Source: Nitrospirota bacterium (GTDB lineage: Bacteria; Nitrospirota; Thermodesulfovibrionia; Thermodesulfovibrionales; UBA9159). From it: a stretch of DNA of 64,000 nt. The notes under the pieces were generated by a model, which saw only the letters and a list, made by a program, of their open reading frames with translations, searched no databases and was not told the DNA's origin. The stretch spans positions 64,001-128,000 of the forward strand of contig CAVOUE010000010.1 of assembly GCA_963699545.1 (NCBI GenBank), in the 5' to 3' direction. Positions within the stretch are counted from its first letter, which is position 1. The number at the start of each line of letters is the position of its first letter. Positions 7,316-28,829 of this stretch are shown here, piece after piece. Position numbers and translations under genes: made by a program.

Positions 7316-7458
7316 TAGTGTAGTGCGTCTAACGCTTCTTTACATTACTTCCGAAGCTGTCATTCCCGTGAAAGCGGGAATCCAGACCGAAAAGACTGGA
7401 TTCCGGGTCAAGCCCGGAATGACAAACAGAGTAAAGGGACTTTTGCCGCAATACACTA
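7316..7458. mobile_element. MITE-like element carrying a REP/RS3-like double hairpin
   Basis: Imperfect terminal inverted repeats TAGTGTAGTGCG/CGCAATACACTA enclosing TGTCATTCCCGTGAAAGCGGGAATCCAG...CTGGATTCCGGGTCAAGCCCGGAATGACA (7358-7424). Confidence 0.6.
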
Positions 7459-7483: not shown

Positions 7484-9067
7484 CTATTTTGATTCGATAT
7501 ATCCCAGATGGACCTGAGATTGAAAAATCTCTTTGAAATTTTGGTTCCCTGAGAGGGTTAGATGCTTTACCCTTTTCGCAAGGAGGCAGGCATTCTGAAA
7601 AGCCGATTTGGACAATGCCATCATCACGGCACCAGTTGCTGGAGTGTTGCCCACATTTTGTATCTTCCGTAACTCTGAAGGCGGAAGAAGCCCGGTTGTC
7701 AGAACATCCCTTGGGTTGATTCGGCTTGCAAAGACACCTGAAAAGAAGATTGCGTTGATCTCATCTGCCCTTAGATTGACATGGGCGAGCACGGTGTCCA
7801 GCGCAGCCCTTGTTGCGGCCTTTGCAAGAATGAATTGTTGTATATCATCTTCACTGACCGTCACATCAGGTGAAAGAATTACCTCCCGACCAGATTTGCC
7901 CCGACGCACTAATTTTTGAGGAATTCTCTCAGGAACCACGGCACCAAACTGATCCAGAGCACCGGCCCTCAGAAGTTCCCCAATCAGACTAAAAAGCCCC
8001 GAACCGGTAATACCGACAGCTGACTTGTTCCCGATCACTGAAATTTCAAAGGCCCCTTTAGCGAATCTCACCTTCTCAATAGCTCCTTCAACACCTCTCA
8101 TACCGCAGGAGATGCCCACGCCCTCAAATGCCGGTCCTGCAGCGGTAGAGCAAGCGACAATAGTTTCCTTTGTGACGACAACTACCTCGGCATTTGTGCC
8201 TATGTCTACGAGCAGGTTTGGAGGTTCTGGATTCAGAAGCGAAACAGCCAGAAGTGCAGCTACTGTATCCGAACCAACAAATCCTCCAACAACAGGGGGA
8301 ATGTGAATAGTAGCTCTCCCCAGAGGGCCCTTCTTAAATGGGGAAAAATGGACAGGACTGTCTATGCCCGATTCATAGGGACATCTCCCTAACTTATCAG
8401 GACTCAGCCCCAACATGAGCGTTTCCATCGCAGTATTCATCACCACTACAACGTCAGTTATCCTCTTGCCTTTATCCGCTGTCAGTTTTGCAAGCTTTTC
8501 CATATCTGAAAGAGTCAAATCCATAAAGGTTTTTCTTGCTTCATCCCAATGATGCGAACAATAAGCAAGACGAGTCATCACATCCGCCCCAAAAATTGAT
8601 TGACCATTGGCAATCGTCGCGGAGGCGATAAGTTTCCCTGTAACGGGGTTCAATAAATGCCCAACTATATTCGTAGTACCCAAATCAACCGCCAGGACGA
8701 CGCCCTCGGAGGGACGATCTTGCCATGGATCAACAGGGAAGCTTAAGTCTTCTATTTTCAACTTGTGTTCAGAGGCCGATACCGGTTCAGGGATTTCTAC
8801 GACCATATCGACCTCCGGGTAAAGTCCACAAGCCAGCCTTATTCCTTCATTTATCTCATCGGTAGAAAGGTGGCTACGTTCAAATTCTGACGGGGCGGGA
8901 GCCATGTTAAAGAGACGAACCCTGCACTTCCCGCAAATACCTTGGCCGCCGCAATAAGAGTTCAAACTCATTCCGGCTCTTGTCAGAACCTGGAACAGGC
9001 TTTCTCTATGGGAAATAGGTAATATCGTTCCTCGGGGAAGAACGGTTATTCTTGCGAACCCAGTCAT
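7484..9067 (-). CDS. Reductive activator of corrinoid proteins (RACE; 2Fe-2S + ASKHA ATPase)
   Basis: CGGQGICGKC...RLAC, DLGTT, FGADVMTR, DIGTNAE, GPAFEG. Confidence 0.9.
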   Translation of the reverse strand: MTGFARITVLPRGTILPISHRESLFQVLTRAGMSLNSYCGGQGICGKCRVRLFNMAPAPSEFERSHLSTDEINEGIRLACGLYPEVDMVVEIPEPVSASEHKLKIEDLSFPVDPWQDRPSEGVVLAVDLGTTNIVGHLLNPVTGKLIASATIANGQSIFGADVMTRLAYCSHHWDEARKTFMDLTLSDMEKLAKLTADKGKRITDVVVVMNTAMETLMLGLSPDKLGRCPYESGIDSPVHFSPFKKGPLGRATIHIPPVVGGFVGSDTVAALLAVSLLNPEPPNLLVDIGTNAEVVVVTKETIVACSTAAGPAFEGVGISCGMRGVEGAIEKVRFAKGAFEISVIGNKSAVGITGSGLFSLIGELLRAGALDQFGAVVPERIPQKLVRRGKSGREVILSPDVTVSEDDIQQFILAKAATRAALDTVLAHVNLRADEINAIFFSGVFASRINPRDVLTTGLLPPSELRKIQNVGNTPATGAVMMALSKSAFQNACLLAKRVKHLTLSGNQNFKEIFQSQVHLGYIESK

Positions 9068-9948
9068 GCGATCTTAAACAACGGATGGGACAAATCCGGA
9101 CATTTTCCCCTTTCCATCATGGACTGGCCGAGGGCTGCTTCCACCATCGCAACTGCTGGGAAAACCGTGTCGGCGAGGGCCATCGGACCATAAATTACAA
9201 ATTCTCCGCCCCAGGCCACTGTGAGGGCGTTTATAACTGCCGTTGCCGGTTTTTTGAAGTTGTCCCCTATCTTGGCTTTTAGGCCGGACCATGTGCTGAT
9301 TGCATTGTGGGCGGCTGCGCCTGGCAGGTATCCTAATTCCTTCGCTTTGGACATGACCTCCTTTGCTGTCCCCATCGAAGGCAAATCGATTATTCCGGGA
9401 TCTATGAGGAAATCGCTTACCCCTTCCGACTTGAGTTTAGCAATAAGACCATCCTCTTTTGTCATCATTCTTATTTTGCCTTCGGCCGAGAAATCGGCGC
9501 TTTCGACCAGCAGTACCACCGCGGCCTTAACCCCGCACTTCCCGATTGCTTCGAACTCTTCTTTCGTGCTTTCTTGCGAGATGCTGTTGTAGATGACACG
9601 ATTGGAGAGGCCCTTGGCTGCCATGTGGCGAATCCCTTCTATTTTCACGACGCTGCTGGTTCCATCCACCATTATAGGTCCTGCGAAATTTTCCACGACA
9701 AAGTCTAAGTAGGTCTTCATAGCGCTTGGCGTAGATGCGAGCACATCGGCACAGCAGGGGATACCGGTAATTTCCGACCACTTTGATTGCAGATCGATCA
9801 ACTTTCCTGCTTCACTTTTATCGAACTGGCCCGTGAGCGGATCGGTCACTATCTTCTGCCTGTCGTAAAAAATGCTTCCGGCAAGAAGGGCAGGCGTCTC
9901 ACCTAAATCCCCGCCCATATTTATTCCACAAACCTTCCTCACTCCCAT
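9064..9948 (-). CDS. MtrH/MtgA-like methylcorrinoid:tetrahydrofolate (pterin) methyltransferase
   Basis: GGDLGETPALLAGSIFY..KIVTD..GQFDK, YNSIS and FVIYGP, typical of the MtrH family. Confidence 0.85.
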   Translation of the reverse strand: MGVRKVCGINMGGDLGETPALLAGSIFYDRQKIVTDPLTGQFDKSEAGKLIDLQSKWSEITGIPCCADVLASTPSAMKTYLDFVVENFAGPIMVDGTSSVVKIEGIRHMAAKGLSNRVIYNSISQESTKEEFEAIGKCGVKAAVVLLVESADFSAEGKIRMMTKEDGLIAKLKSEGVSDFLIDPGIIDLPSMGTAKEVMSKAKELGYLPGAAAHNAISTWSGLKAKIGDNFKKPATAVINALTVAWGGEFVIYGPMALADTVFPAVAMVEAALGQSMMERGKCPDLSHPLFKIA

Positions 9949-10047
9949 AATGTTCTCCCTAAATTTTATTTATAACTCAAAATCTCATAAAGCTCAGAGC
10001 CCCCCTGGGTGAAGCACATCTTTTAGATACACTCTAGGATTAACTCC

Positions 10048-10087
10048 TTTAAGGGAAGCTCCTGAATTTGGCGGAGCTTCCCTTAAA
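10048..10087. terminator. Intra-operon hairpin between MT1 and MT2
   Basis: 15-bp inverted repeat TTTAAGGGAAGCTCC/GGAGCTTCCCTTAAA. Confidence 0.6.
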
Positions 10088-10143
10088 CGGTTGTCTTAGC
10101 TGATCTCAGGAATCCAAAAACAGCGGTTACCTTAGTGCTACCA

Positions 10144-11224
10144 TTACATAACCATTTCTACCGGTCTCGGGTAAGACTCCCGGATGAATGATACGGTCAG
10201 ATCATCATTGTAAACGGTGTCCTTAGCGGCTTGAACCATTGCCAGGATATTTGCCTCAGGCGTTCTCGGATTCAGGTCGCAGCCAGACCCCAGGATGAAA
10301 CCCGAGCCGTTTCCTGCCTCTTCGATGACACTCCGGGATTTCCAATAGACCGCTTCCGGAGTCCCGTAAAGCATGTAATCGATGGGATGGACATTACCGG
10401 AAATACAAATCTTCTTACCGACTTTTGCCTTGCACTCCTTCATGCTTATCGGATGGTCAACCTGTAATGCAAGGGCGCCCACGCTTGCCATCTGATCCCA
10501 TATCAGAGAAGTATCAGCACAGGTATGGTTCACTCCAACAACACCTTTGGACCAGGAGAAGTTAAATATCTCCTTAAGATAGGGAGCGGTGAATTCTGCA
10601 TACTGCTCGGGGAGACAGGATCGTGTTCGAAGAGAAAGGCTCAAGGGCAACAATGGCATGTGATCCTGCCGTGATCAACGCTTCCCAATAGGCGAGAGAG
10701 ACGTCTGTGCAGAAGCGAAGCAGTTTGTGCACCCATTCCGGGTCTTCGTAGGTCGCCATGAGGAGTTGCTCGGGGCCGTAAAGTTGACTGGCTGTCGTAA
10801 AAGGGCCGCCCGTTACAGGTACAATGATCTTTGTGTTATCGAGTCGTTTCTTCAGAAGTTCGATTTCCTTGCAAACATAAGGCATCCTTCCGTCCTTTTT
10901 GGGATCGGGCATCTTGAGTTTCTTGATGTCGCTTTTGTTTTTGATGAAGTAATCGACCACTACCGGGGTGTGCTCATAAACCTTCACCTTGGACCCGAGG
11001 CATTCTGCTTCCACAAAGAGGTCAGATCCTGCAACTACCGCGTCATCTTCAAATCTCTCAGCCCCCGCAAGCTTCCCTCCTACCATCTTTTCAGGATTAT
11101 AGAGACACTCCTCGGTGGTGAAACCTGCCACCCTCAATGACCGCGTGATGGAAAGTGGAGTTACCGGTACACGGTCCGGTTTCTCAAGTTTTACTGCTGC
11201 AACTATCCTTTCTAGTGAATTCAT
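10144..11224 (-). CDS. MtaA/CmuA (UroD-fold) Zn-dependent methyltransferase, split by a 1-nt frameshift near 10610
   Basis: ORFs 10574..11224 and 10144..10659 join as ..ILSP|EQYAEF. Motifs PDRVPV, DGRMP, GPFT, H-T-C and GSGC (Zn ligands). Extra base lies in a G/C run. Confidence 0.85.
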
Positions 11225-11269
11225 TTTTTTGCCTCCTTCTTATTGAGGAAATATTTGCTTTGCTTCTTA

Positions 11270-11917
11270 TCATGCTGCCAGGCCGATGAGCTTTTTTGCG
11301 GCGTGAACCGCCGTTGGCGCGTCAAAGCCACCGTAAGCGTCGGCCCCGATTTTTGCAGCCACTTTCTCGCTGGTAGCTGGGCCGCCGATAAGTATTTTAG
11401 CCTTGATACCCGCGGCCTTGGCCAGTTTGCAAACCTCTTCCATCTTGTCCAGGCAGATGCTCATAATAAGGGACATACCGATGAGGTCGGCATTCACCTC
11501 TTTTGCCTTGTCGATGAAAGCTTGCGGTTCCACGTCCACTCCAAGGTCGTAGACCTTAAACCCGCCGGCCCTCATCATCATACCGACCAGATTTTTGCCG
11601 ATGTCGTGCAGATCCCCTTTTGGAGTGCCAAGCACCATTGTTGCCTTGTAGTTCCCTTCCTTGCCCGCAAGTTTTTCTTCCACAAGTGCCTGTCCTGCTC
11701 CCAGGGCTTTGGCTGCCATTAGAACGTGAGTAATGAATCTCTCTCGCCTGAGCCACATATTTCCCACCTCTGTGAGACCAGCCGCGAGGCCGCTCGTGAT
11801 AATTTTTTGGGGGTCTACGCCTGCCTGAAGGGCTTCCCTTGTTGCAGCTTCAGTTTCTGGGACAGACATCGAAACAATAGCCTGCCGAATCCTGCCAAGT
11901 GAGTCTTTCTCTGACAT
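11270..11917 (-). CDS. Corrinoid (B12-binding) protein, MtaC/MtbC type
   Basis: Cap domain plus GDLHDIGKNLV (DxHxxG), DLGVDV, IGG. Confidence 0.92.
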   Translation of the reverse strand: MSEKDSLGRIRQAIVSMSVPETEAATREALQAGVDPQKIITSGLAAGLTEVGNMWLRRERFITHVLMAAKALGAGQALVEEKLAGKEGNYKATMVLGTPKGDLHDIGKNLVGMMMRAGGFKVYDLGVDVEPQAFIDKAKEVNADLIGMSLIMSICLDKMEEVCKLAKAAGIKAKILIGGPATSEKVAAKIGADAYGGFDAPTAVHAAKKLIGLAA

Positions 11918-11977
11918 TTTCCTCGTCCTCCTTTTTCCGAATTTTCAGGGTAAGAAATATTCATCCCCGATAAGATA

Positions 11978-12008
11978 ATTGTTACCATATATTAATATAT
12001 GTTGTCAA
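11978..12008 (-). promoter_or_regulatory. Candidate promoter/operator of the corrinoid operon
   Basis: Minus-strand TTGACA (12003-12008) with a perfect 16-bp palindrome CATATATTAATATATG (11986-12001) in the spacer. The -10 is weak. Confidence 0.5.
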
Positions 12009-12114
12009 GTGATAATAGTTGTTATAATATGTTTACTTAGAAATAGATATGTGATAAGATAATCAAATTGAAGGTCGAAGGCAAAATCAGTAAAATAATC
12101 CGGAGGGAAGGAAT

Positions 12115-12867
12115 ATGGAATTCCTAACGATACAGGAAGTTGCTCAAATTCTCAAAACACATACCAACACCGTTTATAAGATGTGCCGTGAAGGTAGTTT
12201 GCCATGTGTCAAAATAGGTAAGGAGTGGCGTATCGACCGGGCCAAATTTGCAAAGTTCATGGAGAGCGGGACCAAACAAAAGATGGAAGACCCGCTTCAC
12301 GGGTTTATTAGTGATGCCCTTAAAGGTGGTCATGTTCTCGGCGTTTTTACTGAGCAAGATGATATTGCTGAGTTTGAACTGGAATTTTTTAAAGCAGCGC
12401 CGAAGGATGGACGGCGGTTTCTTAAAGCGTGCTGGTGGCAGCATCCGGATGATGTCCGACAGTATCTTGCCAGGGGAGATTTCCCGGTGGAGGCGATGGA
12501 AGCTTCCGGGTCATTTGTCATAGCAGATTTAGGAAAGATCTTTTGCAGTTCCGGCCCGGTCAGCGCAGCAGAGGTCTGGATAACCGCCACTGAGGATGCC
12601 TTAAAACATGGTTTGAAGGGTCTAATTGGCTCTGGTTCCCCTCATTTCAACTGTTGCGGCAGCCACAGTGCCTTGTTAGAGTTTGAAGGCGCTTTAGACA
12701 AGGGATTAAAAGGTTTGCCGGTTGCCGGCGTTTGTTCTTACTTTATGGACAATGACGTGCCGGATGCCTTTCCCAGGTTTGTTGACCTCGTGGCGGATCA
12801 CGATAGGTTCTTTGTTAAGACAAAGGATGGCGGAATTTTCGCTAAGAATATAAGCTCATTCTCCTAA
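12115..12867 (+). CDS. Excisionase/MerR-like HTH + MEDS sensory domain regulator (DcmR-like architecture)
   Basis: FLTIQEVAQIL..TVYKMCREGSLPCVKIGKEWRI (HTH_17), then GGHVLGVF..SGSFVI..ALKHGLKGL..LLEFE..VCSY matching the MEDS pattern. Confidence 0.75.
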   Translation: MEFLTIQEVAQILKTHTNTVYKMCREGSLPCVKIGKEWRIDRAKFAKFMESGTKQKMEDPLHGFISDALKGGHVLGVFTEQDDIAEFELEFFKAAPKDGRRFLKACWWQHPDDVRQYLARGDFPVEAMEASGSFVIADLGKIFCSSGPVSAAEVWITATEDALKHGLKGLIGSGSPHFNCCGSHSALLEFEGALDKGLKGLPVAGVCSYFMDNDVPDAFPRFVDLVADHDRFFVKTKDGGIFAKNISSFS

Positions 12868-13080: not shown

Positions 13081-14442
13081 TTATTTTGTCTTTCTCATTT
13101 TTTTCAGCGCCTTTGCTATCTGACCCGTAATACTTTTTGTTCTTAGCTGAACATCTATCTTCCCGATATCTTCCATGACTGTATCTTTCTCGACCGCGAT
13201 CGACGACGATTTCCGCATGGAAAGGACCTGACTGGGATATACACTCCTGTGTCCGGTCATTAAGAAACTGATAATGCAGGAAATCGCAGCATAGGGCCCC
13301 ACGGACGCACCGAAAAGCTCTATGGCCATGATGCTTGCGGAAATAGGTGTATTCGCCGCGCCGGCAAGCACGGCTACCATTCCAAGAGCGGCGAACATGG
13401 CCGGGTCCAGTCCCAGTACGCTCCCAAACATGTTGCCCGATGCGGCCCCGACGAAAAAGATCGGCGTAACAATCCCGCCGCTCCCTCCGAAATTAAGGGT
13501 AATTGACGTGAAAAGCATCTTAAAGAGAAAAGCCAGTTTAGGTGTCTCCCTACCCTGCAGGGCGCCCTGGATAGTGTCTAACCCGAGGCCGAGGTACCGG
13601 CTTGAAAGAAGAAACGAAAAGATCGCAAGCACGGTTCCGCCCGCCACCGCCTTGTACGACATCGCCAGCTTTATCTTCTGGCTCATATCCTTAAAATATG
13701 TAAGCATCTCCACGAACAAGAAGGAACAAAGACCGAAAAACACGCCGCTGAAGCATACCTTGAGAAAAAAGAAACTGCTGAAAACGGGGACGAACTTCAG
13801 CGGCTCATGAAAATAGGTGATTCCCATGAGCGACGAGACGTGAAACCCAACAATGCCCGCAACGAACGAAGGGAGCAGTACGTCATAAAGCAGACCACCT
13901 ACAAAGAGCACCTCAACCCCAAATATTGCTCCGGCAATGGGGGTTCCGAATACGGTTGAAAATCCTGCACTGATGCCGCATATGACCAATCTTCTGCGGT
14001 CTTTATCATCGAACTTCAGCAGGTCGGAAAGTCCCGATGCAAGACCAGCGCCTATCTGAGCGCACGGTCCTTCTTTCCCCGCCGAGCCTCCAAAAGCAAT
14101 GGTGATGATCGTCGCGGCAAGTTTTACGGGAACAACCATCGGATTTATTTTCCCCGCACGTTTGTGCACCGCCTCTATCACCTTCTCTGTCCCGTGTCCT
14201 CCAGCTTCAGGGGCGAGATACTTCACGATAACAACGCTTAATAAAAATGCCACCGGGAGCAACAGATAATAATACTTGTACCCGTTTGTGAAATCAATTC
14301 CCAGTGCAAGCAGCTTGAGGAATACCGCCGTTGATGTCCCTACCACAACGCCCACACAGGCTGCGAGAAAGATCCATTTGCTGATGCTCACGAACAAAAC
14401 GGAGCTTTCGAGAATCTTTTTCCTCATTACGTTAATCTCCAA
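13081..14442 (-). CDS. ClC-family chloride channel/antiporter
   Basis: GGSAGKEGP, FGTPIAGAIFGVE, GGIVTP, multiple TM segments. Confidence 0.88.
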   Translation of the reverse strand: MEINVMRKKILESSVLFVSISKWIFLAACVGVVVGTSTAVFLKLLALGIDFTNGYKYYYLLLPVAFLLSVVIVKYLAPEAGGHGTEKVIEAVHKRAGKINPMVVPVKLAATIITIAFGGSAGKEGPCAQIGAGLASGLSDLLKFDDKDRRRLVICGISAGFSTVFGTPIAGAIFGVEVLFVGGLLYDVLLPSFVAGIVGFHVSSLMGITYFHEPLKFVPVFSSFFFLKVCFSGVFFGLCSFLFVEMLTYFKDMSQKIKLAMSYKAVAGGTVLAIFSFLLSSRYLGLGLDTIQGALQGRETPKLAFLFKMLFTSITLNFGGSGGIVTPIFFVGAASGNMFGSVLGLDPAMFAALGMVAVLAGAANTPISASIMAIELFGASVGPYAAISCIISFLMTGHRSVYPSQVLSMRKSSSIAVEKDTVMEDIGKIDVQLRTKSITGQIAKALKKMRKTK

Positions 14443-15623: not shown

Positions 15624-16044
15624 CAGAACCTCAGAGTATCAGATTAAAGATTTCACTTGCAAAATTATATCAGAATCTCATAACGAAAAGAGATTGTTGA
15701 CTTTCAGACCAAGATTCAAGGTGTTGCCGACAAGGTCACAGGATGGGGTTTTTATAAACGCTATGATGGGTCCTCACATGATGGGCAAGGTCAGAATGGG
15801 TTCCCGTTCGTGTTGGTTTTAAAAAACGAGGCGACAGCCCCCTGCTCGACTCTCAAGAAGTCGACATCGTCGGACTGTAAAGATTCTTGACAATTACCGC
15901 TGTGCAGGATGTTCTTTAAAAAGGGGTATGTGACTTTCCGGGTCCAGAAATCAACAAATGTTTCTGGAGGTAATATGTTTTGATAGTCGGGCCGCTATCT
16001 ATTTTAGTTAGCGGCTTTTTTATTTGGAGGCGAAAGACCGGAGA

Positions 16045-16701
16045 ATGGATCCTTTTGAATTCAAACAGTGTATAGGCCTTCTTAAAGCAACCGGAAGGAA
16101 GGCAAAGAATCTGCATGAGCTGCGCGCCGGAATAGAGGGAGCGAGCAAAGAATCTGTTTATTATCACACGTCTCAGTATTTATTAAAGGCGCGCAAGCTT
16201 GAATACACCAATGAGTTTGCACAATGGGCAGGTGAGAGCCTTGGGGAAAGAGTGCTTGCAGAGCATCTTTCTATTGTAGACCCTTATGAGTTTAAGGACT
16301 TTGTTGATCTGAAGGACAAGTTGCTGACCGTGATCGATGATTATCTGGAGACCTTCCCTGAGCCGAGAGAGGTAATTCCCGGCAATGAGTTCTATTTTAA
16401 CGAGACGATTACCCTGGTGATGTCTTCAGGGATGGAAGTGGATAACCTTGCTGAATTTCTTGTCGCTGCAAGGCATCTTGACGACAGCTCGATATACTAT
16501 CACTTTTATGAGTCAAGAACGCGGCTCGGCGGCGAGGATGATTTTACCAATTGGCTTGAGGACTCACTCGGAGAAACAGAACTTGCGGAAAAAATGAGGG
16601 CAATCGATCCTTTCATGTACGGAATAGAAGGAACGAGGAACCTCATAGTTAAGATGGTCGAGGAGAGGGTTAAAACAACAATGGAGAGCTTAGAGATATG
16701 A
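16045..16701 (+). CDS. DUF5752-like protein (internally duplicated)
   Basis: Repeated SxYYH..(N/D)(E/D)FxxW..SLG..LAE..DP module directly upstream of TreT. Confidence 0.7.
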   Translation: MDPFEFKQCIGLLKATGRKAKNLHELRAGIEGASKESVYYHTSQYLLKARKLEYTNEFAQWAGESLGERVLAEHLSIVDPYEFKDFVDLKDKLLTVIDDYLETFPEPREVIPGNEFYFNETITLVMSSGMEVDNLAEFLVAARHLDDSSIYYHFYESRTRLGGEDDFTNWLEDSLGETELAEKMRAIDPFMYGIEGTRNLIVKMVEERVKTTMESLEI

Positions 16702-17948
16702 ATTCTACGGAGGAAAACGGGAATGCCCTGCAGCTGGAGCTTAGGGATTATGTCGAGATCGCCCCAAGAGTTGACCTGTTGGTTATCCAGAAGCTTGCCG
16801 AGAGGTTCTCAGGACGTAGCTTCTTGCATGTGAATTCGACGAAAAGCGGCGGCGGGGTTGCCGAGATTCTCCAAAGGATGGTAGCCATTTTGAAGCGCCT
16901 CGGGATCAATACACGTTGGGAAATCTTACGAGGCGACACGAGATTTTTTGAAATAACAAAGAAGATCCATAATTCCCTTCAAGGTTCTATTGAAAGAATC
17001 ACGAAGGAAATGTGGCAACACTATTATGAAGTCAACAGGCAGAATGCCGAGAATATAAGCCTTGACGCAGACCTGGTTCTAATACATGATCCCCAGCCTG
17101 CGCCGCTGATAGAATTCAGAAAGACGGGAAGATGGATCTGGAGATGCCACATTGATGTCTCGAACCCCTTAAAAGAGACATGCGATCATCTCAGGCAATA
17201 CTGCGAGAAGTATGACGCTGCCATCTTTTCCTCTTCCAGATTTGCTCAATTACTTCCGATAGACGAGTTTATTATTCCGCCGTCGATAGCTCCTCTAAGC
17301 GACAAGAACAGGGAACTTCAAAAAGACGAGATTTCGGTTGTGCTGAAAAGGCTTAATGTGCCGGGTGATAAACCCATTATCCTTCAGGTATCGCGATTTG
17401 ACAGGTTCAAAGATCCGATAGGAGTAATCAAGGCATACAAACTTGTTAGAAAGTACAATGACTGCAGGCTTGTCCTCGCCGGAAGTCCCGCGGACGATGA
17501 CCCTGAAGGGGAAACCGTCCTGAATGAAGTGAGGGAATTCGCGGGGGACGATCCGGATATACACATTCTTCTCCTGCCGCCGTTCAGTGACATTGAGATA
17601 AACGCATTGCAGAGAGCGGCCACCGTTGTTTTTCAAAAATCTTTGAAGGAAGGGTTCGGGCTTACGGTCTCTGAGGCGATGTGGAAGGGGAAGCCTGTAA
17701 TAGGTGGCGCAACAGGCGGCATTCCACTTCAGATACTGCATGGTGTTACAGGATTTCTTGTGTATTCAGTGGAGGGTGCGGCATTCAGAGCTAGACAGAT
17801 CCTTAACAATCCTGCTATGGCAAAGAGGATGGGCGAAAAGGGCAAAGAATACGTACGGCAGAATTTTCTCATAACCAGGCAGGTGAGAGATTATCTTTCT
17901 TTGTGGTACACACTGGAAAACAAAGGGAAAAGTGTTCTGGAGATTTAG
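16698..17948 (+). CDS. GT4 glycosyltransferase, trehalose synthase TreT-like
   Basis: VNSTKSGGGVAE, IHDPQP, WRCHID, SRFDRFKDP, EGFGLTVSEAMWKG. Confidence 0.85.
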   Translation: MNSTEENGNALQLELRDYVEIAPRVDLLVIQKLAERFSGRSFLHVNSTKSGGGVAEILQRMVAILKRLGINTRWEILRGDTRFFEITKKIHNSLQGSIERITKEMWQHYYEVNRQNAENISLDADLVLIHDPQPAPLIEFRKTGRWIWRCHIDVSNPLKETCDHLRQYCEKYDAAIFSSSRFAQLLPIDEFIIPPSIAPLSDKNRELQKDEISVVLKRLNVPGDKPIILQVSRFDRFKDPIGVIKAYKLVRKYNDCRLVLAGSPADDDPEGETVLNEVREFAGDDPDIHILLLPPFSDIEINALQRAATVVFQKSLKEGFGLTVSEAMWKGKPVIGGATGGIPLQILHGVTGFLVYSVEGAAFRARQILNNPAMAKRMGEKGKEYVRQNFLITRQVRDYLSLWYTLENKGKSVLEI

Positions 17949-20215
17949 ATGAAGATTACGTTTCGCCTTATCGTTTCACTTCTTATTGTGGTAGCTCTGA
18001 CTGCCATTGTTTTTTCGTTTTATCAAGTCAGCGCTGAAAGGCTACGTCTCACATCCGAGTTGGAACGGCGAGCTATCGTCCTGGCAGAGAGTTTACAGGA
18101 ATCTGCTATACCTCTGGTGCAGTCAAATGCACTCCCCAGATTGAATCGCCTTGTCGAGCGATTCGGAAACCGCGAGAGGCTCAAGGGAGTTGCCGTGCTC
18201 GACGGGCAGGGAAATATAATAGTAACAACAGCCGGGCTCAAGTCTCACATACTCCAGCCCTTGCCCCAGGCGGTCACCTCCGTCGCGGAAAGGAGACCAG
18301 TGGACGGCTTCTTAGCCGTCGAGGGAAAGAAAACTTATATTTATGCGCTTCCCTTGTCGGCGGAGGATCAACTTATAGGTTCTCTTGCGCTTTTTTATGA
18401 TGCTTCCTACATTGGCGTGAGGCTTGAAGGCATATGGAAGCATAACCTTTTTCGGTTTTTGACATTATCGGTTCTGATCGCGGTGATTACCCTTTTGGTG
18501 ATAAGGTGGAGCATCACAGGTCCGATTGCAAACTTTGCAGAATGGATGAGGGAATTGCGAATGGGGAAAAGCAAAATCAGCCAACCGGTTCCTTCCGTAA
18601 GGGGAGACATTTTAGCGCCGCTGATTACAGAAGCTGCCCACTTGGCGAAGAGTCTCGCGATTGCACGGGCACGGGCGGAAGAGGAGGCGAGGTTACGTGT
18701 TCAGGCTGAATCACTCTGGACGGCAAACAGGCTGAAGGAGCATATGCGTGTTGAACTCGGAGGCAAGAAACTGTTTTTGATTTCGAACAGGGAACCTTAT
18801 ATGCATGTTAAGGATGGCCGCAATGTCAAGTGCATCACCCCGGCAGGCGGATTAGTCACCGCGCTTGATCCGGTCATGCGGATATGTGACGGCGTCTGGA
18901 TTGCCCATGGAAGTGGAGAGGCGGATCGCGAGGTTGTCGATGCCGGCGACAGATTGCGCGTGCCTCCCGAAGAACCTGCCTATGCCTTGAAGAGGATATG
19001 GCTTACCAAGGAAGAGGAAACGGATACTATTATGGTTTTTCGAATGAGGGACTTTGGCCCTTATGCCATATTACTCACACACGTCCCATTTTCCGGTTGG
19101 AGGATTGGGTTCTATTACCAAAAGGTAAATGAGAAGTTCGCGGAGGCATTGCTGCAAGAGGTCGCCGATGAAGAATCTCCTCTCGTTCTGATCCAGGATT
19201 ATCATCTTGCATTGCTGCCGTTTCTGGTCAAAAAGAAGCGCCCGGATGCAAAGATAGCGCTCTTTTGGCACATCCCGTGGCCCAATCCTGAAGCGTACGG
19301 CATCTGTCCCTGGCATCGGGAGATCCTTATGGGGATGCTGGCGGCTGATATAGTCGGCTTTCACATACAGTTCCATTGCAATAATTTTCTGGATACGGTC
19401 GATAGGTTCCTGGAATCAAAGATCGACTGGGAGCAGTTCTCTAGTGAGCCGCGGCGGGCACACGACGTTGATAAAGCCCTTTCCCATAAGTGTCAGTTTT
19501 GAAGCGCGCTTCGGATAAAGAAATCGCAATCCGTGAGAAGACAAGTTCAAGAGAAAACATACTTAAGGAGATAGATGCACATGCGGACTACCTCGGGGTC
19601 GGCGTCGACCGCATCGATTATACCAAAGGCATCCCCGAGCGATTCAGGGCAATTGAGAGGTTTCTGGAAAAATATCCCGAATTTGTGGGCAGGTTCACAT
19701 TTGTAGAGCTTGGCGCGCCGAGCCGTACGCATATCAAGAAATACAGGGATCTCACAACGGAGGTCGAAGAAATGGTTGACAAGATCAACTGGAGATTTCA
19801 GACAAAGGGATGGAAGCCTATTGTCTTTCTTAAGGCGCACCACAGCCACGAGGAGATAACCCGCTTCTATAAGACAGCCGACATCTGCATGGTGACCTCC
19901 CTGCATGACGGTATGAATCTGGTCGCCAAGGAATTTGTGGTAGCGCGTGATGACGAAGACGGGGTATTGGTTCTCAGTCAATTTGCCGGCGCGTCGCGTG
20001 AACTGAAGGATGCGGTGATTATAAATCCTTATGATATCGAGGATATGGCGGATGCGATACATCTTTCGCTTACAATGGAGCCCTCGGAGCGAACTGAACG
20101 GATGCAGAGGATGCGGGCTGTGGTCAAAGAGCATAATATCTATCGCTGGGCTGGAAATCTGATCACGTCATTGGCACGCCTGAGACCTGTGGGAATGCAG
20201 AATGGGAGAACTTAG
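17949..20215 (+). CDS. otsA: Trehalose-6-phosphate synthase with N-terminal TM-periplasmic-TM-HAMP-like sensor region (frameshifted)
   Basis: SNREPY, GGLVTAL, QDYHL, FWHIPWP, GVDRIDYTKG, DGMNLVAKE. Frameshifts near 19020, 19110 and 19440. Confidence 0.85.
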
Positions 20216-21018
20216 TAAGATCGCGCAGCCGCGATATCTTTTCGGGGATCTAAATGAAACCCCTTTTTAAAGAAACTCGCGCGCGATCGCACGGTTGCAT
20301 TGTTTCTTGATTTTGACGGCACATTAGTTCCCATTCGGCAAGACCCTGCAGAATGTTTCCTGTCTGAAAAGATAAAAAAACAGTTGCGCTCGCTGGCAGA
20401 CTCTGAACGCATCCGTCTGACGATTATGAGCGGGAGGTCTTTGTCCGACGTTAGGAAGAGGGTCGGTATACGTAAGATTTATTACGGCGGCAATCATGGA
20501 TTGGACATCACCGGCCCGAGTGCGAGATATACACACGCAAAAGCTTTATCTGCCAAACCTCTTATGAGGCATGTAAAGCATCTGCTCAAACGTGAGATAG
20601 CGGGTATTAAGGGCGCGTGGCTCGAAGATAAGAAATTTACGGTGAGCCTTCACTTCCGCACAGTGAAGAAAGGACATGTGCAATTACTTAAGAAATGTTT
20701 TTGTAGAGTTGCAAGTGAATTCCTGGAGGACAGATCACTGGGCGTAATCAAGGGAAAAAAGTCCTTGAACTGACGCCTGATTCAACGTGGAACAAGGGCA
20801 GTGCGGTCCTCTGGATTTTACGGCACTTCAAAGGTAAGTGGTTGCCCATCTATGTGGGTGACGACACAACCGACGAGGCGGCGTTTACGGCCCTTAAAGA
20901 AGGAGGCATTACTATACGGGTCGGAAAAGCGAAGAGTACCGGTGCGAAACACTATGTCAAAGGCTATTGGCAGATTCCGCAATTATTGGAACAAATTCAG
21001 GAGTACATCTCTGTATAG
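20202..21018 (+). CDS. otsB: Trehalose-6-phosphate phosphatase (frameshifted)
   Basis: FLDFDGTL, SGR, then WNKG and YVGDDTTDE in a shifted frame. Indels in T-run ~20265 and A-run ~20758. Confidence 0.82.
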
Positions 21019-22812: not shown

Positions 22813-23353
22813 CTAAAGCCAGTACTCAGGATATCTTCTGTTCTTCGAGAGGTTGTTCACCAGGAGAGCGACGATCAGAAGAACGAGGGCGCCGAGGCCG
22901 GCGGGGATAAAGGCATACAGGAAACCAAGGCTGTGAATTTTCTCCCCACCGATCACCGCGATCAATGCCGTTGCACCACCTGGTGGATGGAGCGTCTTCG
23001 TGATGAGCATCAGCCCAATGGCAAAGGCTACGCTCAGGGCCGCCGCGATCCAAAGGGTACCACCAAACAGTTGAAAGCACGCGACTCCGGTAAGACCCGA
23101 TATCACGTGGCCCCCTATCAGGTTGCGGGGCTGGGCAAGCGGGCTTTTGATAGCGGCGTAGACCAGTACGGCAGACGCTCCAAAAGAACCTATTAGCAAC
23201 GTCGAATCCGCAGGTTCAAAATAGTTCACTGACATATAACCACATATGCCGATTCCCATTGCAGAGCCGAGCCACGACCAAAGCACCTCTGTGAAACCGA
23301 CCGCCCGGGGGGCTCTTGGCGCCGCCCTTCATCTTTGCGATGTAATCCTTCAT
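22813..23353 (-). CDS. HPP-family membrane protein (frameshift near 23305)
   Basis: GSFGASAVL, SPLAQPRN, HPPGGATAL. ATG at 23353 overlaps the CBS gene stop. Confidence 0.85.
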
Positions 23354-23940
23354 CTCTTCCCCGTGGCCCTGACAATGTCGGCCCTTGAGATAATCCCGAT
23401 GAGCTTATTTTTCTTATCCACGACAGGGAGCCTTTTGATCCTCTTTTCATCCAGGATCTTCGCCACTTCTTTTATATCCGCGTCGGGCCTCGTGGTTATG
23501 GCAGGTGATGACATTATGTCACCCACAAGATGTCCTGACTTGCGCTCGGGCAACGGCTCCCCAAGGATGTGCCGCAGAATATCTCTGAAATTATGACCGT
23601 CCCTTATCCCCGTCATGGAAAGGATATCCGCTTCCGTGACAACGCCGAGGACACTGTTCTCCGCATCAACGACCGGAAGACCGCTGATCCTGTTTTCCGA
23701 AAGAAGCCTTGCCGCCTCCTGAATATCATCGTACTTCTTGAGCGCCACCACTTCTTTCGTCATTATCTCATCCACCAGGACCTTATCGACAAGCCGTTCC
23801 CTCGCATGTCTCAACGCAATAGTATAGATCTTCTTCAGGTCTTCCTCCGTGATATCCACATAGGCCTTTATCTCCTTCAGCGCAGCCCGGAGGTCTTCAT
23901 CTGAAATATCCACATCCCCTTGTTTTCCAGCCATTGGCAT
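23350..23940 (-). CDS. CBS-domain protein
   Basis: Two CBS repeats (ISGLPVVD, IKRLPVVD..GIISRADI). Confidence 0.85.
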   Translation of the reverse strand: MPMAGKQGDVDISDEDLRAALKEIKAYVDITEEDLKKIYTIALRHARERLVDKVLVDEIMTKEVVALKKYDDIQEAARLLSENRISGLPVVDAENSVLGVVTEADILSMTGIRDGHNFRDILRHILGEPLPERKSGHLVGDIMSSPAITTRPDADIKEVAKILDEKRIKRLPVVDKKNKLIGIISRADIVRATGKR

Positions 23941-24060
23941 ACACTCCTCTCCCGGTCGTGAGGGTTGCCACAGATTAGCCTTTCCCGCAGACCATCTGTT
24001 ATGATTTATATCACAAATGCGCGGGGATGGCAACGGCTGCCTGCAAACGGGATCTATCGA

Positions 24061-26391: not shown

Positions 26392-27366
26392 CTATTGAAT
26401 TCTGATCCGATAATGGAACAATTCTTTTAGAAAACTGAGCTTTTTCTTTTCATCTGCGAGTATATCAACGAGATTGAAATGCACGTCAATTTCCCTGTCT
26501 GTTTTTAGTTGTGCATATACCGCCTCAGTAAAGCAGCTTGCAAGATAAATTGTCAAACAGTGAGCATTCTCTGATTTTGCTTTTGCAAAAGATTTCTTAG
26601 CCTCACCCAATCGCGTCTGCGCTCCAGCCTTATCCATGCTGCCTTTGATTTCAATTGCAGCAATCAGCTTGTCTTTAGCATCTCTTATCGAAACATCAGG
26701 CTCATGCGAAAAAATAATCCGCCACAAATTTTTTAGGATGATATGAGTCTGTTTCTGACTTTTGCCTTTGATTTTTACAGCCTTTTTTTCTAAAGATTCA
26801 AAGAATCCTTTCTCATGGGCATAGTCATAAATAATGCCTTCAACAGCCTTTGCCGCTCCTTTTCCGATTACATTGACCCATGTTCCCTGAATTTCCGTTC
26901 CCACTTCAGCAATAAGAGCTTCTCTGGCCAGAGAAAGAGAGAATCCGTCAGTATCTATAACTATACTTGAGATAAGCTGATTCAATATTTTCGAGATTAG
27001 TTGAAGACGTGTTTCATGATTCTCTTTGCTTAACCGGGGCAGTTTCCCCGACAAAATTTGACTCAGCCCCTTTTGGGAAAGAGCCGCCAGGTTTCTGTAG
27101 TATTCAATTATTTCAGGACACGCTGCCAAAATTGTCGGATGGCAAAATACAAGGGCAGGGTTAACTGATATTCTTTGGACGATAGAGAGTGCCTCCCTGG
27201 ATATTCCGAGATGAGGAGAAGCCCAAGAAACTTTATTGGACGCACATTCTTCAACACGAGAAAAAATCTTGGTGAGGTTCTTCTTTTCAAGAATGGAATA
27301 GAAAAGCTTAGCTCTTGCTATGTAGGATTTTATTAAAGCATCCGACAAAGTATCTTTCCTTTTCAT
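26392..27366 (-). CDS. Type II restriction endonuclease, XcyI-like (PD-D/ExK)
   Basis: EPDVSI..AAIEIKG..RLGEAKKSFAKAK, coupled to the MTase, AT-rich. Confidence 0.7.
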   Translation of the reverse strand: MKRKDTLSDALIKSYIARAKLFYSILEKKNLTKIFSRVEECASNKVSWASPHLGISREALSIVQRISVNPALVFCHPTILAACPEIIEYYRNLAALSQKGLSQILSGKLPRLSKENHETRLQLISKILNQLISSIVIDTDGFSLSLAREALIAEVGTEIQGTWVNVIGKGAAKAVEGIIYDYAHEKGFFESLEKKAVKIKGKSQKQTHIILKNLWRIIFSHEPDVSIRDAKDKLIAAIEIKGSMDKAGAQTRLGEAKKSFAKAKSENAHCLTIYLASCFTEAVYAQLKTDREIDVHFNLVDILADEKKKLSFLKELFHYRIRIQ

Positions 27367-28829
27367 TGAATGAACTCACCACAACGCTTTGACCACACAT
27401 AGACGCATTTTCGCAATTCATTGCGCCCATATGCACCCATCTGCTGGCTGCTGTTTCCTTTGCCTCGCGGCAAGACCCAAATGCAATCAACCGTCAGCCC
27501 GGCGCTCTCAGCAAATTCAGAAAGGATCAAGTCTACAGGAATTTCTTCACCATGGTAACGAACATTGTCATTAACCATTATTATACGACCGCCCGGTGCG
27601 AGAACTCTCGAAAGTTCATGAATTATGAGATTCATCTCAAAAAAATAGTTCTCGATCATGTTGGGAATATTGTTATTATTTAGATCGCCTCTATTTCTCG
27701 CTTTATAAAGAAGCCCTAAGACCTCATGCAAAGCTTCCTGTTTATCGAAAGTCCGTACGGCAGAGTCAAAGAAGGCCTGCTTATTCCGTCGCTTATATTC
27801 AACAAATAATTGTTCCCGCTTGCTCTTGTTTTCAACTGTTGCAGAGAGAAGCGTCTGCCGTAAATTCTTTAGCGCTTCTTCGTCATAACCGATGAAAGCC
27901 AACTCGACTGCATATGTTCTGGTATAATCGTACCGATTACAATAGGGAGGCGAAGTCAGAATAAGGTCAAAAGAATCAGCAGCCAAATGAGGCAACTCCT
28001 TTAGGCAAGAGCCCTCGATTATTTTCACATTACGTGAGTAAGAGCCGCCGTTGCGCTGTTTAATGTCGTCCAGCATCATGTGCAATTTATTTGTTATTGC
28101 GTGTCTGAAATCCGGAATAACACCCTTATCAAAACTTGACTTTAGGTCGCGCTCCGACCGATAATCCCACCGAAGGTATTGCCCATCCTTCCGCGTAAAA
28201 CTCACTTCTTCGAGAATGGAAAGGCAGGCAAACCAAAAAAGGTAACGAACATCTTGCTCCCCAATTTCATTTAGAAATGTCATATAGGAAGCAATCGCCT
28301 GTTCTGTCGCTTTCCGGAAAGCCTTCTCGGTAATACGCAAATGCGGGAACTGGAAATCGCTTCCCGTCTTTTCCAATGGATACTCTTTAAATCTGAGCAA
28401 ATAGTTCTCAACCAACCGAATGTCGACCTTAGCCGCCTTCAGTCTGGCTTTCATTGCAGCAACGCCAACAGGCAAGAGTTCGATACCTGTAGCATTCCAG
28501 CCAGCTTTTGTTGCAGTGGTTAAAGTAGTGCCTGCACCGGCAAATGGATCCATAATCTTCGGCGCACCCTTCTTGACAGGCCGAAACCTTTGTATAAAAA
28601 AACGGACGAGTTCAGAAGAAAAGGCTTCTTTGTATTTCAGCCAGCGATAAAACGGCACATTTTTATTCGCTTGAAATGACACAATCGCCCTTGAAAGATC
28701 GCCATTAATACTTAACTTATCCGCATACTTCCGAAATAGAACCCTTCTCTTTTTATCGGTCCTCGGAATCGACGCTGGAATGATTGGCCGTTCAATTAAA
28801 GTGATATTCATGGAGCCACCTTTCATCAA
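27363..28829 (-). CDS. N4-cytosine-type DNA methyltransferase
   Basis: DPFAGAGTT (motif I) before TSPPYCNRYDY (motif IV). Confidence 0.85.
   Translation of the reverse strand: MMKGGSMNITLIERPIIPASIPRTDKKRRVLFRKYADKLSINGDLSRAIVSFQANKNVPFYRWLKYKEAFSSELVRFFIQRFRPVKKGAPKIMDPFAGAGTTLTTATKAGWNATGIELLPVGVAAMKARLKAAKVDIRLVENYLLRFKEYPLEKTGSDFQFPHLRITEKAFRKATEQAIASYMTFLNEIGEQDVRYLFWFACLSILEEVSFTRKDGQYLRWDYRSERDLKSSFDKGVIPDFRHAITNKLHMMLDDIKQRNGGSYSRNVKIIEGSCLKELPHLAADSFDLILTSPPYCNRYDYTRTYAVELAFIGYDEEALKNLRQTLLSATVENKSKREQLFVEYKRRNKQAFFDSAVRTFDKQEALHEVLGLLYKARNRGDLNNNNIPNMIENYFFEMNLIIHELSRVLAPGGRIIMVNDNVRYHGEEIPVDLILSEFAESAGLTVDCIWVLPRGKGNSSQQMGAYGRNELRKCVYVWSKRCGEFIQ

Follow-up and report, generated by a model that had tools for sequence, protein, structure and literature searches.

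An unfused corrinoid methyl-transfer cassette of Nitrospirota and other anaerobes: a candidate relative of the chloromethane Cmu system

Introduction

The closest described counterparts of the locus reported here are three corrinoid-dependent systems for halomethanes: Cmu (CmuA and CmuB of Methylorubrum extorquens CM4, and in anaerobes the cmuBCA clusters), the mec cassette of Dehalobacterium formicoaceticum and its relatives for dichloromethane, and Cdm (CdmB, CdmC and CdmA) of Acetobacterium dehalogenans for chloromethane. The cmuBCA genes have been reported in five anaerobes together with an adjacent 'excisionase' gene, which was read as a sign of horizontal transfer (PMC4197683), and haloalkane methyltransferases have been argued to have arisen several times in their superfamily and to be more widespread than known (PMC13222342). 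We analyzed a 64,000-nt stretch (the window) of contig CAVOUE010000010.1 from the Nitrospirota bacterium assembly GCA_963699545.1, in which positions 7484-12867 hold a cassette of five genes. Four of them encode, on the minus strand, a corrinoid protein, a first methyltransferase (MT1), a second methyltransferase (MT2) and a RACE activator; the fifth is a divergent plus-strand gene for a regulator with an HTH_17 and a MEDS domain. Homologous cassettes and their proteins are called target loci and target rows.

The cassette is real and conserved, and apparently an undescribed variant of corrinoid methyl transfer. Two independent links, one given by the MT1 trees and a shared residue triad and the other by the regulator family, point to Cmu and not to Mec or Cdm, and the sequences suggest that the cassette most probably works like Cmu without being a member of it. 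We put at about even the chance that it serves anaerobes in the catabolism of methyl halides (CH3Cl, CH3Br, CH3I), as an unfused methyl-transfer system related to Cmu. No description of the MT1 clade, or of the assignment of MEDS regulators to cmu clusters, was found in the titles, abstract openings and consulted passages of papers in the open full-text literature (PMC3621897, PMC6299022 and PMC13348062 included).

Cassette organization and distribution

The list of open reading frames (ORFs) and a Pfam scan bear out the four co-oriented genes and the divergent regulator with a helix-turn-helix (HTH) and a MEDS domain that had been noted in a preliminary description of this DNA (Table 1). The cassette therefore co-encodes all three components of a corrinoid system, MT1, corrinoid protein and MT2, together with an activator. 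The motifs named in that description were also recovered: DxHxxG of the corrinoid protein is present as DLHDIG, the HxC..C zinc ligands of MT1 are His233, Cys235 and Cys315 of the read-through protein, and the MEDS domain, the sole MEDS match in the genome, reaches 47.7 bits (cut-off 29.8). The RACE and MT2 genes overlap by 4 nt. A promoter and terminator scan gave nothing beyond the level of shuffled sequences.

Table 1. Features of the cassette and its edges in the window
Feature	Coordinates	Strand	Basis
HTH_17 (excisionase-type) + MEDS one-component regulator, 250 aa	12115..12867	+	Pfam; family of regulators adjacent to anaerobic cmuB(C)A
Divergent control region, putative operator	11918..12114	-	Alignment of 7 homologous regions and phase test; function inferred
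Stand-alone corrinoid (B12-binding) protein, 215 aa, His-on motif DLHDIG	11270..11917	-	Pfam B12-binding, B12-binding_2
MT1, MtaA/CmuA-family Zn methyltransferase (URO-D), 359 aa on read-through, two frames	10144..11224	-	Pfam, trees, residues
Run of four C (coding strand) with the extra base that splits MT1	10609..10612	-	Comparison with homologues and contigs of relatives
Decayed 5' remnant of a cobW-type GTPase gene	10090..10121	-	Match to the start of cobW in L047 (32 nt, 78% identical, E 0.002)
Perfect 15-bp inverted repeat at the cobW/small-gene deletion site	10048..10087		Repeat scan; candidate element only
MT2, MtrH-family methyl-corrinoid:tetrahydropterin methyltransferase, 294 aa	9064..9948	-	Pfam MtrH
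RACE/RACo reductive activator (2Fe-2S + ASKHA ATPase), 527 aa	7484..9067	-	Pfam Fer2, Raco_middle, RACo_C_ter
REP-like palindrome, 65 bp, outside the cassette	7359..7423		Genome-wide repeat

Homologues of MT1 at E <= 1e-30 number 265, and among the best 120 of them, which were examined by identity, 36 are 50-90% identical and the others 40% or less. The clade profile, run against 1.84 billion representatives, gave one match at 620 bits and the next at 325, and because of this drop the MT1 clade is treated as one discrete family. Its named members belong to Nitrospirota, Nitrospinota, Desulfobacterales, Thermodesulfobacteriota and Thermoleophilia, the closest being Nitrospirae and Thermodesulfovibrionales records. 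Within the class of the host, where at most five candidates per genome were scored, the cassette was found in 6 of 390 genomes (the window genome counted) from four families. The cassette is conserved yet patchy in distribution.

The usual order is the regulator gene, divergent from the genes for the corrinoid protein, MT1, CobW, a 120-aa protein, MT2 and RACE. Among 18 metagenome loci, the corrinoid gene lies directly upstream of MT1 in 14, and the remaining 4 start at or inside MT1. Twelve of these loci have MtrH, 7 have RACE, 7 the regulator and 15 the CobW GTPase, with most absences falling at contig ends; L063 has no RACE gene despite a 6-kb flank. A survey of synteny thus finds the gene set conserved across homologous loci, usually with CobW. 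The intact cobW gene of homologous cassettes has a CobW Pfam match, and the 120-aa gene after it (L013:9110-9466, L014:9668-10033) matched nothing in Pfam or NCBIfam; in L055 both genes are relocated to the edges of the cassette. In the window copy cobW is reduced to a 32-nt remnant and the small gene is lost, so that the cassette, earlier called minimal, is not small by design.

Relationships and active-site residues of MT1

In a FastTree phylogeny of 270 rows, MT1 and its clade group with CmuA and five unnamed stand-alone proteins (support 0.997; the CmuA compared is from plasmid records). The likeness to CmuA suggested in the preliminary description is thereby upheld, MT1 falling with CmuA and outside the 225 generic rows of the MtaA/CmuA family. 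The same grouping was obtained in reduced sets, subsampled by hand from the 270 rows with a few loci added: SH-aLRT support was 98 under a posterior mean site frequency (PMSF) mixture model with a quick search (61 rows), and the paired supports were 99/98 under LG+G4 (35 rows), 100/98 after removal of the R28 and K51 columns (34 rows) and 100/97 under PMSF with a careful search (20 rows). Approximately unbiased (AU) tests, with groups defined after the earlier trees were seen, reject the alternative in which the MT1 clade joins the next-nearest group (p 0.02 and 0.006).

Three residues, R28, K51 and E120, accompany this grouping. They occur in 37/37, 37/37 and 36/37 target rows, respectively, and in all 11 CmuA rows and all 7 sister rows; among the other rows they are found in 2/220, 1/224 and 0/225, none of which carries two of the three. 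MT1 thus has both the position in the CmuA clade and the triad, a combination defined in this analysis and not taken from print. The His-Cys-Cys zinc motif (H233/C235/C315) is kept, and the MT1 clade also has invariant residues absent from CmuA, H85, N232 and Q254 among them. The triad would line the active site of MT1, as a by-eye comparison with a supplement row of PMC13222342 puts it near the arginine-bearing first loop of UroD. The three residues are now testable in CmuA.

As judged from these trees and residues, MT1 is a sister lineage of the CmuA methyltransferase domain. The predicted model of an intact, 93%-identical MT1 homologue (pLDDT 93.4) has MtaA (4ay8) as its best fold match. 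Against the TIGR01463 MtaA/CmuA family model (cut-off 235.4 bits) the two MT1 frames, scored separately, reach 117.2 and 93.2 bits. The ESM Atlas, searched with the homologue P0018, returned generic clusters of the uroporphyrinogen decarboxylase (URO-D) type only, and no solved CmuA structure turned up in the PDB searches made here.

The regulator and its control region

The regulator belongs to a family of 87 homologues (clusters). In 70 regulator rows H73, K104, C106, W107, Q109, P111, E129, W155, E191, C207 and H229 are invariant, and these residues, those of the sensor domain included, are common to cmu-linked and target-linked regulators. The window protein shares with the cmu-linked family the HTH_17 domain, the MEDS domain with its CWWQ-P motif and the divergent orientation from a methyltransferase operon, and is 35-40% identical to the regulators at all eight cmu loci described below. 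A regulator of Desulfomonile tiedjei (P0440, 45% identical, annotated as excisionase family), a species whose genome has cmu genes, nests among the target-type regulators.

The cmu linkage was observed in a Bacillota sample of 401 genomes from a dsrA-rich group (52 of 301 with dsrA). Eight of the 401 encode a fused CmuA that is 66-69% identical to M. extorquens CmuA, together with a CmuB at 70-74%, and each of these anaerobic cmuB(C)A clusters (L123-L130) has a regulator of the HTH_17-MEDS family divergently upstream. An HPP permease gene lies between regulator and cmuB in six of them, and L129 is without cmuC. A search of the same genomes for the regulator gave 10 matches, namely the 8 cmu-linked proteins, one further full-length copy and one HTH-only protein; thus 8 of 9 full-length copies are cmu-linked. 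In 401 genomes around G390 the regulator was found in G390 only. By sequence, the 'excisionase' beside anaerobic cmu clusters is identified as an HTH_17-MEDS protein, which recasts it from the transfer sign of 2014 to a probable dedicated sensor-regulator. A family member that retains most of the sensor residues (L149:9568-10323, G953) has no methyltransferase of the corrinoid systems nearby and flanks a gene for an S-adenosylmethionine (SAM) methyltransferase.

In the control region, a conserved TTGACA starting at 12008 (minus strand) is overlaid by short AACA-type direct repeats in a 10-bp phase. A phase test over nine target and seven cmu control regions showed phased repeats across TTGACA in both sets, and in each set 0 of 2000 shuffles was as strong, the regions within a set being related and hence not independent. 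Such a layout fits head-to-tail binding by HTH_17 proteins.

The regulator had also been called DcmR-like. It resembles DcmR and other HTH-MEDS proteins at the domain level, in having a MEDS domain above the Pfam cut-off and an N-terminal HTH; the shared MEDS domain stands, and the name reaches no further than that domain. MEDS has been described as sensing simple hydrocarbon derivatives, and HTH-MEDS proteins are also found at epoxide clusters (PMC11507031), so the domain by itself names no halomethane. The predicted model of the regulator (pLDDT 92.6) has KaiC/RecA-like proteins as its nearest, weak fold matches; those of the MEDS domain model are of the KaiC/FlaH RecA type (E about 1e-4 to 1e-5), which would fit a degenerate ATPase fold. 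The fold search returned no solved MEDS protein.

Comparison with described systems

The cassette shares with Cmu a methyltransferase of the URO-D fold from the same deep lineage, with the R/K/E triad and the His-Cys-Cys motif, a corrinoid carrier and an MtrH-family second methyltransferase; with the anaerobic cmu clusters it also shares the divergent HTH_17-MEDS regulator and the phased-repeat promoter. It differs from Cmu in that methyltransferase and corrinoid protein are unfused, in the window and wherever both genes are seen in homologous loci, and in an MT1 identity of 30% to CmuA, as compared to 64-84% among cmuA homologues (range from PMC4197683). Because of this low identity, target MT1 genes would escape cmuA-based surveys. 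Further differences are a His-on corrinoid protein, an MT2 that is not CmuB, and a RACE activator of its own, usually with CobW. No CmuC match was found in the six target regions screened (L136-L138, L150-L152) or among the window ORFs, and no fmdB in the target loci screened.

Among solved structures, MT2 is closest to PDB 8z9u (185 bits) and MtgA 6sj8 (175 bits), followed by MtrH 9qtp (122 bits); 8z9u was recognized as MtoA by eye against a supplement row of PMC13222342. MtoA and MtgA transfer methyl groups from a methyl-corrinoid to a tetrahydropterin, as is predicted for MT2, whereas their MT1 partners are of the O-demethylase or MttB type and not of the target clade. Against the MtgA family model MT2 scores 203.8 bits, below the cut-off of 550. 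The identification of MT2 as a CmuB orthologue was rejected on the basis of its tree and of 29-32% identity, the two proteins sharing a Pfam family only. Target corrinoid proteins form a clade of their own (16 rows), and a sister relation to the B12 domain of CmuA found no tree resolution.

A link to mec and dichloromethane, raised in the preliminary description, found no support. Like the target, the mec cassette clusters a stand-alone corrinoid protein, an MtaA/CmuA-family methyltransferase, an MtrH-type MT2 and RACE (bioRxiv 10.1101/2021.08.30.458270). It has, however, the MecA/MecD two-component pair, three URO-D methyltransferases (MecC, MecE and MecI) and MecJ (bioRxiv 10.1101/2021.08.30.458270; PMC9768040), in contrast to one URO-D methyltransferase, a one-component MEDS regulator and no MecJ in the target. 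Membership in mec was rejected on this gene content. MecE and MecC, compared by eye in supplement rows and by short motifs only, are without R28 and K51, and five short MecE/MecC motifs had no match among the 266 methyltransferase homologues screened.

Cdm is likewise an anaerobic three-component corrinoid system leading to tetrahydrofolate (THF), with an MT1 of the URO-D superfamily. Unlike the target, its CdmB is zinc-free and its CdmA resembles MtqA and not MtrH (PMC13222342). In our comparison CdmB scores 42.5 bits against the clade profile, as against 159 for MtaA, and membership in Cdm was rejected. MtaA, the methylcobalamin:coenzyme M (CoM) methyltransferase (PDB 4ay7/4ay8), is the best solved fold for MT1 (template modelling score, TM, 0.84; 27% identity) and has the same His-Cys-Cys ligands; it differs in that the alignment pairs K51 with Ala and shows no Arg opposite R28. 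A CoM-methylating role is needless for MT1, since a separate MtrH-type enzyme is encoded.

Proposed function

With MT1 grouping with CmuA and the regulator tied to anaerobic cmu clusters, the earlier proposal of a complete corrinoid system, leading from a small volatile C1 substrate to tetrahydropterin, holds at the level of sequence. In the methyl-halide function that we favor, RACE would use ATP and low-potential electrons, as in its family, to keep the corrinoid protein in the Co(I) state. MT1 would bind CH3-X at the His-Cys-Cys zinc, and Co(I) would take the methyl group, with Arg28, Lys51 and Glu120, the residues shared with CmuA, perhaps stabilizing a small anionic leaving group. The MtrH-type MT2 would then hand the methyl group to THF, an acceptor suggested by fhs and metF in the host, and the methyl-THF could be oxidized or assimilated by the Wood-Ljungdahl enzymes whose genes the sulfate-reducing host carries. 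The CobW GTPase of most homologues probably supplies zinc or cobalt. The HTH_17-MEDS protein is predicted to bind the 10-bp phased repeats over the operon promoter and to respond to the substrate, with a sign of control that could be either. Genes of anion-permease type recur nearby (HPP in six of the eight cmu loci; HPP, NrtS or CLC in five of 15 distinct target loci) and are a weak hint of anion export.

Several observations weigh against the methyl-halide function or its link to Cmu. MT1 is 30% identical to CmuA over 350 aa, CmuA ranks 169th of 233 non-clade rows by raw clade-profile score, and in the MT1 trees it sits on a long internal branch; given this identity and rank, the MT1-CmuA link is carried by the trees and the triad. 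The labelled rows of those trees exclude the methyl-sulfide methyltransferases MtsA, MtsD/F/H and MtpA, as well as MecE and MecC. The DLHDIG motif of the target corrinoid protein stands against NTQDIG in CmuA, and its tree gives no firm place; that of MT2 puts it in a clade separate from CmuB. A stand-alone group (P0231, L153 and L154) lies nearer to CmuA in methyltransferase and corrinoid protein and joins CmuB in MT2. The eight cmu-linked regulators form one clade, so their linkage may reflect one ancestral event, and around the ninth full-length regulator no methyltransferase lies closer than about 10 kb. Ten of the 15 target loci, some of them cut short, lack anion-permease genes, and folD was not found in the 87%-complete host genome. 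Finally, none of the anaerobic cmu clusters had been demonstrated to be active on chloromethane as of PMC4197683.

The same divergence could mean that MT1 is a distant CmuA relative now acting on some other small methyl donor whose leaving group is anionic, such as a methyl ester, a nitro compound or a methylated metalloid, which the regulator would then sense. The 30% identity, the separate corrinoid and MT2 lineages and the clade-specific invariants missing from CmuA (H85, N232, Q254) would all suit such a shift, and HPP and NrtS are annotated or regarded as nitrite/nitrate permeases. Substrate switches between close relatives are documented for CdmB and the O-demethylases (PMC13222342). We nevertheless hold this explanation improbable: both the triad and the sensor-domain residues are shared with Cmu, and the homologous cassettes have no conserved gene for a substrate-binding protein or for a transporter of organic substrates, as expected for a membrane-permeant gas.

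If methyl halides are the substrates, the cassette would represent a fourth corrinoid route for them after Cmu, Cdm and Mec, formed by an ancient unfused CmuA-related lineage across sulfate-reducing Nitrospirota, Desulfobacterales, Nitrospinota and Thermoleophilia, and an uncounted anaerobic sink under methyl-halide-sensing HTH-MEDS control; this wider proposal is tentative, and we rate it somewhat below an even chance. It may amount to an overlooked oxygen-free route consuming methyl-halide gases. The cassette is a candidate that comes from sulfate reducers and from other anaerobes; small, conserved and self-contained, it lends itself to expression and assay in the way done for CdmBC.

Relatives also carry a second unfused cassette (L153:9345-12731, G118:C31; L154:129-3021, G001:C62) with genes for NrtS, a stand-alone methyltransferase with the R/K/E triad, a corrinoid protein and MtrH, and with a MerR regulator in L153. 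All three of its enzymes branch nearer to CmuA/CmuB than those of the window, and a split Cmu may be better represented by it than by the target cassette.

Host metabolism and the methyl-sulfide alternative

The host genome has dsrA above the cut-off, dsrAB, acsB, acsC/D, two fhs genes and three metF matches, and Wood-Ljungdahl and THF genes for the downstream pathway are thus present, folD not having been found. The latter was found in five of five cassette-bearing relatives and acsB in four of five. Judged by these genes, the host is a sulfate reducer with Wood-Ljungdahl genes. It also holds several other methyltransferase loci of the MtaA/CmuA family (URO-D type).

In such a host the same machinery could demethylate methanethiol or dimethyl sulfide (DMS), the zinc binding sulfur, HS- or CH3S- leaving and the methyl group passing to THF. 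Methyl sulfides are abundant in anoxic sediments, as stated in published abstracts. A CmuA-type enzyme is reportedly described in the title of a paper as a halomethane:bisulfide/halide ion methyltransferase, by which the shared site would handle HS-, and the His-Cys-Cys zinc is the thiol-activating site of MtaA. On the other hand, in the Bacillota sample the regulator family occurs hardly anywhere but at cmu loci, and the other URO-D-type loci of the host could serve thiol chemistry. No sulfur-metabolism gene is conserved in the cassette, genes for DsrE and a disulfide oxidoreductase standing beside one locus only (L055). We consider a methyl-sulfide substrate rather unlikely, and MT1 may accept both halides and sulfides. 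Should the substrate be methanethiol or DMS, the cassette would offer a candidate for the enzyme by which sulfate reducers use methyl sulfides, to our knowledge an open gap.

Integrity of the window copy

The two MT1 frames are separated by one extra base in a four-base run, and with the run read as one step the 359-aa protein P0001 is obtained. The preliminary description had flagged this frameshift, and the extra base proved to be peculiar to the window: six of six homologous genes compared have three bases at the run, and contigs of close relatives from four of four independent runs, at roughly 90-99% identity and not demonstrated to be the same strain, have one base fewer at 10609. The frameshift is for this reason very likely an assembly error. 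Of 27 loci tested in the genome, a few of them redundant antisense frames, 6 are multi-frame, MT1 among them; acsB and acsC/D are likewise split, indicating an error-prone assembly. Hence the MT1 gene is most likely intact, and a true pseudogene is unlikely.

These data also bear on a role other than growth, in which the cassette would scavenge methyl halides to protect corrinoid enzymes, work backwards, methylating halide or sulfide with methyl-THF as the donor, or be a decaying copy. Haloalkanes alkylate Co(I) corrinoids spontaneously (PMC13222342), and the host has many corrinoid systems; the loss of cobW and of the small gene, together with the missing folD, would fit decay. However, the frameshift is not seen in close relatives, the relative L011 is also without cobW and has all five genes intact, and a dedicated activator and MT2 imply sustained turnover. 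We regard any such role as very improbable.

Base composition and flanking elements

The cassette has a GC content of 48.5%, compared to 54.6% in the left flank, 48.2% in the right flank and 52.1 +/- 2.7% as the genome mean (9th percentile). The description of the block as more AT-rich than its flanks is therefore true of the left side only. Of 10 homologous loci, 3 have a cassette GC below that of the flanks, 3 have about the same and 4 have a higher one, so that the cassettes track their surroundings, and AT-richness was rejected as a sign of recent transfer.

The element at the cassette edge, formerly taken as resembling a miniature inverted-repeat transposable element (MITE), is a genome-wide palindrome of the repetitive extragenic palindromic (REP) type, with 5 to 8 copies in the genome and matches across many relatives. 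It was found at the edge in none of the eight homologous loci scanned and is thus neither part of the cassette nor its boundary. Copies occur inside the intergenic region between regulator and corrinoid genes in two homologues (L047:2499-2860, L136:919-996).

Other loci of the genome and window

Several further C1-related loci were noted in the host genome. One (L039, G000:C9:1-20000) is a cluster with a bacterial microcompartment (BMC) shell gene, a PanB-like gene, two metF, fhs, a pterin-binding methyltransferase, several URO-D methyltransferases, RACo, a corrinoid protein and a gene of the Prismane/carbon monoxide dehydrogenase (CODH) family. In another (L044:8374-12088, G000:C4), a URO-D-type methyltransferase gene is directly followed by a dsrAB-like pair, the second of the genome and a divergent one. 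Two similar corrinoid operons (L042 and L043, G000:C3 and C1) combine URO-D methyltransferases, MtrH, RACo and NMT1-type binding proteins, and close relatives of these operons are common across the class.

Within the window, a CLC chloride-channel gene (13081-14442, minus strand) is convergent with the regulator; it was considered as a conserved chloride exporter and rejected, the window being the only one of 15 distinct target loci in which it was found. A run of genes at 16024-20773 (plus strand), which we take to resemble trehalose synthesis, has apparent frameshifts near 19490 and 20773. An HPP-family gene paired with a CBS-domain gene (22813-24033, minus strand) lies about 10 kb from the cassette. 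A low-GC pair at 26392-28829 (minus strand) has, by eye, the look of a DNA methyltransferase and a restriction endonuclease.

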